A model generated the notes under the pieces. It was not told the origin of the DNA, did no database searches, and was given only the letters and a program-made list of their open reading frames with translations. Shown here one piece after another: positions 36,282 to 38,358 of a DNA stretch of 64,000 bases (position 1 is the first letter of the stretch; the number at the start of each line of letters is the position of its first letter). Source of the DNA: Gammaproteobacteria bacterium (GTDB taxonomy: Bacteria; Pseudomonadota; Gammaproteobacteria; UBA6002); assembly GCA_013697705.1 (NCBI GenBank), contig JACCWJ010000008.1:6235-70234 (forward strand), given 5' to 3'. The translations under genes were made by a program, and so were the position numbers.

Positions 36282-36328
36282 CGATGCCGAAAGGCGGAAT
36301 CGAACCGCCGACCTCCTGATTACGAATC
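36282..36328 (-). repeat. 47-nt copy of a tRNA-Thr 3' half (discriminator through anticodon loop), a direct repeat of 38283-38329. Interpreted as the distal att site of an integrative element.
   Basis: CGATGCCGAAAGGCGGAATCGAACCGCCGACCTCCTGATTACGAATC versus the intact tRNA CGATGCCGGAGAGCGGAATCGAACCGCTGACCTCCTGATTACGAATC. Differences are compensatory within the T-stem. Confidence 0.8.
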
Positions 36329-36452
36329 TCGAATTCATATACTTAACTAGTTTTTACCGTGCTTAATTAATTTTTACAAAATAAACACTTACTGATAACC
36401 TGCCTTTAATCAACCCACACTTAATTTAACTAAATTTCACCTTAACCATAGT

Positions 36453-37192
36453 ACCAGTCTAGCACTGATTCTCTGGCGAAAATCCGAGAACATAGTGCTT
36501 ATGCAGCAAATAGACTTCTTGCGTTACTGAGTATTTTATTTAACAAAGCAATTGAATTTGGCTTATGGGATAAAACAAATCCTGTAATAGGAATAAAAAA
36601 ATTTAGAGAACAATCACGTGATCGTTTTTTACAATCTGATGAACTACCTCGCTTTTTTCAAGCACTGGCAGAAGAACCCAATGAAGACATCCGGGATTAT
36701 ATTCTTCTTTCACTGTTAACAGGCGCTAGAAAATCAAATGTATTAGCAATGAAATGGGAACAAATTAATTTACCTCGCAAAGAATGGCGTATTCCAGAAA
36801 CTAAAAATGGCACCCCGCAAACTATTACATTGCCTAAAGAAGCTTTAAAAATGTTAAAAAAGCGCCGGAATAGATTACAAAATCATTACTATGTTTTCCC
36901 AGGCAATGGAAATAAAGGACATTTAATTGATCCTAAAAGGGGTTGGCAGCGCATATTAGCTCATGCAGGGATTCAAGATTTACGAATACATGATTTACGC
37001 CGCACATTAGGAAGCTGGCAAGCTAAAACAGGCGCCTCATTGGCCATTATTGGCAAATCTTTGAATCACAAATCTCCTATGACCACAGCTATTTATGCGA
37101 GATTGGATTTAGACCCTGTTGGAGAGTCCGTGGAAAAAGCTACTAAGGCTATGTTGAAAGCGGCAAAAATTAATTTAGAAGAAGATAAGTAA
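36453..37192 (+). pseudogene. int: 5'-truncated tyrosine recombinase (P4-family integrase), retaining part of the SAM-like domain and the catalytic domain
   Basis: The frame is open from just after a TAG at about 36450 with no upstream start for the arm-binding domain. It encodes LLALLSILFNKAIEFGLWDKTNPV (core-binding), then HDLRRT (HxxR) and TAIYARL (catalytic Tyr). Confidence 0.8.
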
Positions 37193-37347
37193 AAATATAA
37201 GGAAAAACTTATGACCATTATATCTAATGCTTTCCACTCCGGTCTAACCCATTCCCCACTGAAGATCCACCAATGTATAGAATTTAATGGCTAGGATTAA
37301 CTTGTGTTTCGGACGTTTTTGACCGATACTTAACTTAAGGATTTCTC

Positions 37348-37563
37348 ATGAAAGGCTCTGAGTTCTTAAAAAAAATTAAAAAACTAGGAAAGGAAAAAGG
37401 TATCAAAGTTGAGCTAGTTCAACGACGCGGTAAAGGAAGCCATAGTACCCTACTCTATGGGGAACGCTTTACGATTATTCGTAATTTAAAAGATGAACTT
37501 AAGACTGGCACTTATAACGCTATGCTTCAACAGCTTGGCATTGATAAAGACGATTTGAGGTAA
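37348..37563 (+). CDS. hicA: type II toxin HicA (mRNA interferase)
   Basis: MKGSEFLKKIKKLG...RGKGSHSTLLYGER...GTYNAMLQQLGI fits the HicA/YcfA family. Confidence 0.8.
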   Translation: MKGSEFLKKIKKLGKEKGIKVELVQRRGKGSHSTLLYGERFTIIRNLKDELKTGTYNAMLQQLGIDKDDLR

Positions 37564-37568
37564 ACACT

Positions 37569-38000
37569 ATGAGCAATTTTAATTATCCTGCTACCCTAAT
37601 TAAACAAGAGGAAGGCGGCTATTTAGTACAATTTACTGACTTTCCTGAAGCTATTACTCAAGGTGAGACTAAAGAAGAGGCTTTAGCCGAGGCTATTGAC
37701 TGCCTTGAAGAAGCTATTGCAAACCGTATTGAAATGAAATTAGATATACCAGCACCAAGTCGTCATAAAAAAACGGATTACATTGTCTCACTACATACCA
37801 CCTTTGCGGCAAAGACAGCTCTATATCTTGCAATGCGTGAACAGAAATTAAGTAATACGCTCTTAGCCAAAAAGTTAAATTGCGATGAGAAAGAAGTTCG
37901 TCGCCTTCTTGACCCGCACTTCAATTCAAAATTACCAAGAATTGAGCAAGCACTCCATATGTTAGGCAAGAAACTTCAACTAGAAGTTGTTTCTTGCTGA
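37569..38000 (+). CDS. hicB: type II antitoxin HicB (HicB N-terminal fold plus C-terminal HTH)
   Basis: N-terminal YPATLIKQEEGGYLVQFTDFPEAITQGETKEEALAEAIDCLEEAI (HicB/UPF0150); C-terminal helix-turn-helix. Located 5 nt downstream of hicA. Confidence 0.8.
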   Translation: MSNFNYPATLIKQEEGGYLVQFTDFPEAITQGETKEEALAEAIDCLEEAIANRIEMKLDIPAPSRHKKTDYIVSLHTTFAAKTALYLAMREQKLSNTLLAKKLNCDEKEVRRLLDPHFNSKLPRIEQALHMLGKKLQLEVVSC

Positions 38001-38285
38001 GCTGAGAGCTTTTTTTAAAATCACTATATGCGATAAGGAATTCTAGATTGATGAATTGAGATATTTTTATATCCTAATTTATCACAAATTTTTTTTATTT
38101 CATGCTTGCATGCTCATAATTACATCTAGGTCCCACCCTGATCTCGCATATTTCATCCTTTTCAAACGGTAAGGCTACTTGTTGGAACTGTTGCAACAAA
38201 AGGACTAATACTGAATTTACTGTTTCGCCAAAATTTTAGTTTTTCATCTATTTTTACCCTTCGTTTCCCTGTGATAATTTATCGA

Positions 38286-38358
38286 TGCCGGAGAGCGGAA
38301 TCGAACCGCTGACCTCCTGATTACGAATCAGTTGCTCTACCAACTGAGCTACACCGGC
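38286..38358 (-). tRNA. tRNA-Thr (anticodon CGU)
   Basis: Cloverleaf read on the minus strand: GCCGGTG-TA-GCTCAGTTGGTAGAGC-A-ACTGA-TTCGTAA-TCAGG-AGGTC-AGCGG-TTCGATT-CCGCT-CTCCGGC-A. The anticodon loop TTCGTAA is identical to E. coli thrW. CCA is not encoded. Confidence 0.85.

Follow-up and report, generated by a model that had tools for sequence, protein, structure and literature searches.

How did a copy of the 3' half of tRNA-Thr(CGU) come to lie about 2 kb away from the intact gene, with part of an integrase gene and a hicAB toxin-antitoxin pair between the two? The question is raised by a locus within a stretch of 64,000 nucleotides (nt) of contig JACCWJ010000008.1 (positions 6,235 to 70,234; assembly GCA_013697705.1, a gammaproteobacterium of the GTDB group UBA6002), here called the window, in whose coordinates positions are given unless a contig is named. 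The analysis indicates that the locus is very probably what is left of an element of about 10 kb, carrying a P4-type integrase and inserted at tRNA-Thr(CGU), which has since been gutted by deletions to a 2-kb remnant. It is an ordinary, well-understood type of genomic scar, belonging to the common class of tyrosine-integrase tRNA islands. The coordinates of its features are collected in Table 1.

A first-pass annotation of the window had reported a 47-nt copy of the tRNA 3' end in direct orientation, and the report was verified by alignment. Segments 36282-36328 and 38283-38329 align without gaps on the same strand, with 43 of 47 nt identical, the fragment being located on the 3' side of the gene. 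By including the flanks, the repeat extends to 55 nt at 89% identity (36274-36328 versus 38275-38329), with a spacing of 2001 bp. The similarity is significant: the window contains exactly two occurrences of the 33-nt core of the repeat, compared with 0.00 expected from 100 shuffles. No third copy scoring above shuffled queries was detected in the window by either blastn-short or a Smith-Waterman scan. The fragment begins at position 30 of the tRNA, within the anticodon stem, comprises the anticodon loop, the variable loop, the T-arm and the 3' strand of the acceptor stem, and ends 3 nt past the 3' end, and the two attachment (att) cores are identical across 19 nt around the anticodon loop. 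The copies had been said to differ only by compensatory T-stem changes, a description that fits half of the differences: two of the four make up the compensatory T-stem pair 49:65 (A:T in the gene, G:C in the fragment), the remaining two are C-to-T changes in the acceptor stem, which turn G-C pairs into G.U. When joined to the 5' half of the gene, the fragment is folded by ARAGORN into a tRNA-Thr(CGU) cloverleaf, and both copies therefore descend from a working tRNA. The structure of the locus was confirmed in an independent Logan assembly of SRR11719871, which is 100% identical over 28981-38346 and 38323-49848.

Other features were noted in the tRNA gene and around its fragment. ARAGORN also reports a 'tRNA-Ser(cga)' at 36285-36357, which is composed of the displaced Thr fragment and of unrelated spacer DNA, and for which the Rfam tRNA model gives no call at its gathering threshold. 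The acceptor stem of tRNA-Thr(CGU) contains a U6.U67 mismatch; the corresponding tRNA of L072, a syntenic contig described below, has C6.U67 (9703-9777) and an identical 3' strand, a pattern which fits 3' halves of related elements joined to diverging native 5' halves. On the outer side of the fragment, an open stretch of 33 codons at 36178-36277 (VGCQYKYLAQDLKVGKVTIERWYHQRYWHEEKTP) stops 5 nt short of it and resembles a helix-turn-helix remnant. Its Pfam matches reach just E 0.09-0.2 (YfeC-like, CI repressor HTH), and it could be debris from an earlier element.

That the locus is the remnant of an integrative element at tRNA-Thr(CGU), as had been proposed, is supported by the organization of related loci, fetched for comparison and numbered L001 onwards. 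Upstream of the integrase gene (int), an antisense piece of a tRNA 3' end is found in 12 independent relatives or more, mostly at a distance of 150-225 nt, and at 560 nt in L022/L023. Such 3' fragments are not called by ARAGORN, and they were located by matching regular expressions for T-arm motifs in antisense orientation. The idea that the family does not target tRNAs and that int is unrelated to the repeat, derived from the near-zero number of ARAGORN tRNAs in the loci of more than 30 relatives, was overturned by these finds. The fragment derives from tRNA-Thr(CGU) in L068/L069, L021/L024 and L031/L073, where, like that of the window, it ends at ...GATTACGAAT(C). The integrases of L068/L069 share 77% of their amino acids (aa) with the window fragment, while those of L021/L024 and of L031/L073 are 59% and 49% identical to P0001, the closest homologue of the window integrase. 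Remoter members of the family are accompanied by fragments of Thr(UGU), Phe, Arg, Leu, Pro, Asn and Lys tRNAs. The elements of the family are laid out as displaced fragment, spacer, int, cargo, other element genes and regenerated tRNA, with an identity block whose start is within the anticodon stem-loop. The window integrase is transcribed toward the tRNA gene, with its 5' end facing the fragment. The fragment marks the integrase-proximal end of the element, and 38283-38329 is the second copy of the repeat, presumably supplied by the element and regenerating tRNA-Thr.

An intact element of this kind is provided by L073, an IMG/VR contig of 10,415 bp. Its tRNA-Thr(CGU) repeats are located at 24-55 and 10375-10406, the latter continuing into the tRNA 5' half, and the same short arm-type repeats are found near both ends; its genes include int (208-1410), HTH_17 (AlpA-type), AAA_25 and Mu-type baseplate genes. 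Other relatives feature HTH_17 together with replication genes of the DUF927, DUF3987 or AAA_25 types, and genes of the HTH_17 and replication types were recognized in L006, L007, L068 and L073. Neither an AlpA/HTH_17 excisionase-regulator nor primase/helicase genes are present between the window repeats. The slot 3' of int is variable in the relatives, where it holds cargo of the defence type, namely AbiEii, an SLFN/AlbA ATPase, HTH_3, DUF6387 or DUF1016; in the window it is occupied by hicAB.

L001, the contig encoding P0001, was evaluated as a possible intact element and rejected, as it lacks a tRNA fragment and carries a decayed hicA'B' 4.6 kb away. A 214-aa fragment of an RVT_1 reverse transcriptase (L001 4472-5152) ends 36 nt upstream of its int, replacing the tRNA fragment and most of the native spacer, and an imperfect palindrome of about 80 nt occurs twice in the contig (118-197 and 2689-2779). 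A different arrangement was observed in L070 (3479-5996), where two tyrosine integrases are arranged in tandem: the family member, of 391 aa, is preceded at a distance of 208 nt by one of 377 aa, which takes the place expected for a tRNA fragment; in L071, a sibling contig, the 377-aa integrase is split into open reading frames (ORFs) of 114 and 243 aa.

The integrase frame of the window is open over 36452-37192, with the stop codon at 37190-37192. The earliest ATG, GTG or TTG is found at 36749 and defines a 147-aa ORF, which is all that the GenBank annotation reports (36749-37192). Pfam searches of the frame revealed a Phage_integrase domain (PF00589, 88.9 bits), while the Int_N core-binding profile was matched at positions 61-100 of 100 only. 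Thousands of homologues were retrieved by database search, and nearly all of the full-length ones measure 390-400 aa and combine PF13356 with PF00589. P0001 is 94% identical at the aa level, in an alignment which begins at its residue 158, and L001 is 92% identical at the nt level, with homology from window position 36484 on. The fragment thus corresponds to residues 158-392 of the 392-aa Arm-DNA-bind_3 (P4-type) integrases, i.e. to the last 40% or so of the core-binding domain and the entire catalytic domain. No remnant of residues 1-157, or of the arm-binding domain PF13356, was found anywhere in the window by tblastn in all frames, in agreement with the earlier description of a startless frame devoid of arm-binding domain. 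Similarly, no second integrase or remnant of one is present within the 64-kb window, the rest of the genome not having been searched for a cognate full-length integrase. The residues R239, K264, H326, R329, W335 and Y361 (numbered as in P0001), which do not vary in the family alignment and are taken here to be the catalytic residues of these tyrosine recombinases, are all kept, including the HxxR and Tyr (H326, R329, Y361) previously recognized as intact; R370, invariant among 18 aligned full-length family members, is replaced by Gly. Judging from these alignments, the window integrase is a descendant of the Arm-DNA-bind_3 family and not a complete member of it. Its recombination activity is expected to be lost, given that the core-binding domain is incomplete and the arm-binding one is gone. 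As its integrase is a startless pseudogene, the island counts as a remnant and not as an active island.

Homologues that are short at the N-terminus, making up about 9% of the top matches, were considered as a possible recurrent functional short form. The case examined, P0019 (L081), proved to be a frameshift-split gene in an error-prone assembly, and the hypothesis was discarded. The ENA ERZ250395xx/ERZ250396xx assemblies break single genes (integrase, secA, ftsZ) into short ORFs, as observed at L081 4558-5750 and at L072 14263-16997 and 18663-19704; these splits presumably reflect frameshift error, and 'truncated' homologues found there are not to be taken as real.

The DNA separating the tRNA fragment from the integrase frame is related to the spacers of intact elements. 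It contains a 16-nt motif, TTAAnTAnnTTTnACC, in three copies (at 36343, 36363 and 36426), and two TAG(C/T)AC repeats (36448-36466), which, judged by their position, would be arm-type integrase sites. The spacer can be aligned to L068 1988-2173 (69% over 188 nt, E 4e-11), where the ATG of int is at 2187. In addition, a near-identical block, CATAGCACCAGTCTAGCAC, which may be written CATAG(T/C)ACCAGTCTAGCAC, is common to the window, L006 and L070, and in the latter two contigs it lies directly upstream of the int start. The position of the former ATG is now occupied by CTG (36473-36475) or ATC (36482-36484), depending on the alignment. Since the native spacer is kept and codon 158 (36485) is where integrase homology sets in again, the start codon and some 150-157 codons must have been taken by one in-frame deletion, of about 450-470 bp.

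The age of this deletion was evaluated by comparison with the intact L001 integrase, which gave a synonymous divergence (dS) of 0.34, a non-synonymous one (dN) of 0.03 and a dN/dS of 0.087. When substitutions were polarised by using five outgroups, 15 synonymous and 6 non-synonymous ones were assigned to the window branch, and 19 and 7, respectively, to the L001 branch. The 708 nt of the fragment contain neither stops nor frameshifts. The lack of relaxed selection argues for a recent truncation: on the evolutionary scale, the fragment would have been a pseudogene for a short time only. The element had been described as decayed, which holds in so far as it has been gutted, and not in the sense of old age.

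Downstream of the integrase fragment, hicA and hicB are both intact and on the same strand, the toxin gene coming first with a gap of 5 nt, and their assignment to a canonical pair is backed by Pfam, PHROG and Protein Data Bank (PDB) matches. In this family, HicA acts as an RNase toxin, and HicB serves both as its antitoxin and as repressor of the operon. The window HicA reaches 28.7 bits with PF07927 (HicA_toxin), against a cut-off of 27, matches PHROG 353 'toxin' with E 1.7e-8, is 63% identical to an annotated HicA from a plasmid of the cyanobacterium Geminocystis and contains the G30-S31-H32 motif, while a PDB sequence search returned nothing meaningful for it. At 71 aa it is longer than the 58-aa E. 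coli protein, and the extra length would be an insertion after the first helix. HicB is composed of an N-terminal HicB fold and a C-terminal helix-turn-helix. It can be aligned end to end, C-terminal DNA-binding domain included, with E. coli K-12 HicB (6HPB_B of 6HPB and 6U0I_A of 6U0I, E 3e-20), in a type II toxin-antitoxin system which also has hicA upstream of hicB, and it matches PHROG 497 'HicB-like' with 98.8 bits; the HicB-like families of Pfam give 22-24 bits, slightly under their cut-offs. The pair is probably still active.

The cassette moves together with the 86 nt upstream of it: window 37262-37619 is 88% identical at the nt level to L001 203-552, and 37216-37261 has no counterpart in L001. 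The L001 copy is decayed, hicA having lost its start and gained stops, and hicB being cut after about 15 codons. The hicAB genes thus form a mosaic module, which has stayed intact in the window. A simple scan detected no consensus sigma-70 site on the hicAB strand, and promoter and terminator scanning of the locus revealed no excess of sites over shuffles. The 283 bp between hicB and the tRNA gene contain no ORF, no arm repeats of the TAGCAC type and no homology to the fetched loci. The suggestion that the element was reduced to an addiction module is an over-interpretation: a recent truncation explains the intact hicAB by itself, and its survival therefore needs no addiction argument.

Table 1. 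Position, strand and supporting evidence of the features discussed (window coordinates).
Feature	Coordinates	Strand	Basis or remark
Intact tRNA-Thr(CGU)	38286-38358	-	Rfam tRNA 69.4 bits; ARAGORN tRNA-Thr(cgt) at 38284-38359
Displaced tRNA-Thr(CGU) 3' fragment	36282-36328	-	Gap-free alignment, shuffles, counterparts in relatives
Native att-int spacer (integrase-proximal arm)	36329-36475	+	Homology to the spacers of L068, L006 and L070
In-frame deletion junction	36473-36484	+	Alignments to relatives; start codon and codons to about 157 gone
Integrase pseudogene fragment	36485-37192, stop included	+	Pfam Phage_integrase; homology to P0001 and L001
Upstream region of hicA, travelling with the cassette	37262-37347	+	Homology to L001; putative promoter/operator
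hicA (71 aa), toxin family	37348-37563	+	Pfam HicA_toxin, PHROG 353
hicB (143 aa), antitoxin	37569-38000	+	E. coli HicB structures, PHROG 497
Residual non-coding DNA, hicB to tRNA	38001-38282	.	ORF, repeat and homology scans negative
Low-GC effector-like block	15553-36026		Outside the repeat-bounded element

A history can be proposed on this basis. An element of about 10 kb, coding for an Arm-DNA-bind_3 tyrosine integrase, would have entered the tRNA-Thr(CGU) gene upstream of pilD, by a crossover in the anticodon loop. The 3' half borne by the element would have restored the tRNA gene (38286-38358), and the former 3' half would have been displaced to the far end, beside int. The in-frame deletion of about 450-470 bp would then have stripped int of its start, of the arm-binding domain and of about 60% of the core-binding domain, sparing the att-int spacer. 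At least one larger deletion would have cleared the stretch from the cargo slot to the tRNA, and with it a regulator of the AlpA type, the genes for replication and the arm on the tRNA side. Both core att repeats, one arm, the dead integrase fragment and hicAB are what is left over. The remnant is predicted to be unable to excise by itself; a restored attB would join the T-stem variant of the fragment to the tRNA 5' half (...GGCGGAATCGAACCGCCGACCTCCTGATTACGAATCAGTTGCTCTACC...). The crossover site, as well as the reading of one copy as regenerated and the other as displaced, follow the logic of the Islander survey (PMC4383910), where the anticodon-centred attP class and the relation between regenerated gene and displaced fragment are described.

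Some observations weigh against this history. If the fragment is the original 3' half of the host gene, its pairing with the 5' half is slightly poorer than that of the present one, as it forms two G.U pairs; for this reason, it may have decayed or come from an earlier occupant of the site. The absence of relaxed selection could also mean that the integrase fragment is still used. Original cargo status cannot be demonstrated for hicAB, as L001, the nearest integrase relative, does not have these genes beside int. Finally, neither an empty site nor a close relative was found, so that integration is deduced from the structure of the locus and not from a comparison of occupied and empty sites. 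A scan of genome contigs with PilD detected relatives at 41% identity or less only, and a PilD protein search found none between 100% and 48%; YihY homologues exist at 76-82% identity.

The imperfect pairing of the fragment, as expected from an earlier occupant, is also one of the points in favor of a more complex history, according to which the remnant forms, with the low-GC block next to it (about 15.5-36.3 kb), a tandem of islands that all arrived through tRNA-Thr, the older fragment and integrase having been eroded. The GC content is 0.36-0.40 over 16-38.5 kb, against 0.42-0.45 in the flanks, and the eukaryote-like genes of the block look accessory. They code for IDO, an ankyrin-repeat protein, a Ras/Roc GTPase and a 2160-aa DEAD/ResIII/SNF2 helicase-like protein, along with two GNAT acetyltransferases, a 2H-SAK protein and an Hpt-REC-STAS trio, and suggest a host-associated lifestyle. 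Use of the same tRNA by a different island is documented in L072, a contig with the same pilD-coaE-EamA-zapD-NUDIX-secA-dciA-lpxC-ftsZ order at 65-75% DNA identity (PilD 48%). Its tRNA-Thr(CGU) is also located directly upstream of pilD and is followed, past its 3' end, by an island containing a DUF927 primase, RhuM and IS66, in a contig that stops about 6.5 kb past the fetched 10-kb flank. As the islands differ, the tRNA-Thr(CGU) by pilD is a recurrent integration site. However, window scans detected neither a third tRNA fragment above chance nor an integrase remnant belonging to the block. In addition, IDO (64% aa identity) and the ankyrin protein follow FMN_red in L079 as they do in the window, a gene for a 1286-aa OTU protein being inserted there. 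In view of this synteny, the left end of the block predates the split of the lineages and is not a recent tRNA-borne arrival. Unrelated genes are found in the corresponding region of L077. Tandem arrival is therefore considered unlikely, and the first-pass proposal that the 21-kb block, which is located outside the repeats, probably entered at the tRNA marked by the repeat is not sustained: the block is a variable effector region, for which entry through the tRNA is unsupported.

In the same neighborhood, the prepilin peptidase PilD (38483-39235) was seen to contain the Peptidase_A24 domain only. The Cys-rich N-terminal domain PF06750 is internally missing, and is present in almost all of the top 120 PilD homologues (best identity 48%).

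Even if the simple history of one gutted element is maintained, the 2-kb remnant might still behave as a mini-element, mobilised in trans by a related full-length integrase encoded elsewhere in the genome and carrying hicAB along. The identity of the att cores around the anticodon loop and the arm repeats kept on the int side are compatible with such a role. Moreover, integrases of this family are numerous, and a sister assembly, with a consecutive accession in the same deposit series, encodes a full-length one at 76% identity. The tRNA side is less favorable, as its 283 bp are devoid of the arm-type repeats that intact L073 has at both ends; an excisionase/AlpA gene is absent from the remnant, and no second integrase is encoded in the window. 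Mobilisation in trans is accordingly regarded as improbable.

A still less probable hypothesis, which can be given little credit, is that the deletion, by fusing the native upstream region to residues 158-392, created an arm-less short protein, translated from a non-canonical start (CTG 36473 or ATC 36482) and kept by selection, for example because it interferes with related integrases. The reading frame was preserved by the deletion; it is open from 36452 on and shows no stops or frameshifts over 708 nt, and the substitution pattern of the window branch is as constrained as that of the intact orthologue. A recent deletion accounts equally well for the clean frame, though, and the candidate codons are preceded neither by an ATG, GTG or TTG nor by a Shine-Dalgarno-like sequence. 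Some 60% of the core-binding domain is gone, and the family-invariant R370 has become Gly. The narrower proposal, that such a product was selected as a core-site binder blocking related elements at tRNA-Thr, deserves marginally less credit again. That the similarity arose by chance, or by a local duplication in which site-specific integration played no part, is a formal possibility only and practically negligible, given that no matches are expected by chance, that the compensatory T-stem pair reveals the functional-tRNA origin of each copy, and that the arrangement of fragment, spacer and int recurs through the integrase family with different tRNAs.

The gutted island at tRNA-Thr(CGU) can be compared with known systems. 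Background on these is as follows: in P4 and CP4-57, int directly follows the regenerated tRNA and has the same direction; P4 integrates at the T-loop/3' region of leuX rather than at the anticodon loop; P22, SfV, SfIV and their relatives integrate at thrW. The relatives of the window integrase share with the P4-type (Arm-DNA-bind_3/DUF4102) integrases of the satellite phage P4, of CP4-57 and of many tRNA islands the PF13356 plus PF00589 architecture and the use of tRNA targets, and the intact ones share with P4-like elements an AlpA-type HTH_17 gene and primase/helicase-like genes (DUF927, DUF3987, AAA_25). In this family, int is the neighbor of the displaced fragment, with its transcription directed away from the latter. 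When compared with integrases of a phage collection, none of the 25 matches listed, P4 not being among them, is more than 35% identical to the family. The thrW phages have the same isoacceptor, tRNA-Thr(CGU), as their target, and the integrases of SfV and SfIV are about 25% identical to the family; these integrases are just distantly related, and the phages are complete temperate ones.

The closest parallel in organization is offered by the Islander tRNA islands (PMC4383910), which also combine an intact tRNA with a cognate 3' fragment placed downstream of it in direct orientation, and have tyrosine integrase sequence between the two. The Islander anticodon-centred attP class likewise has an identity block extending from the anticodon stem-loop to beyond the 3' end. 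The window differs in that its integrase is truncated, so that the Islander assumption of a putatively active island fails, and in that it spans 2 kb, against the 10.4 kb of intact L073. A literature search found no paper mentioning the assembly accession, and nothing relevant on tRNA-Thr islands in Legionella.

The locus changes nothing in the present understanding of integrative elements or of toxin-antitoxin systems, and its value is chiefly one of annotation. The displaced tRNA fragment fixes the ends of a nearly erased island, at a site where annotation can be misled by a false ARAGORN tRNA-Ser and by a 147-aa 'integrase' that is a piece of a pseudogene. For the integrase family as a whole, targets are missed by scanning the tRNA genes beside integrases, because int adjoins the fragment and not the gene. 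For the organism, the recurrent integration site at tRNA-Thr(CGU) lies in an uncultured lineage of gammaproteobacteria in which eukaryote-like genes abound.

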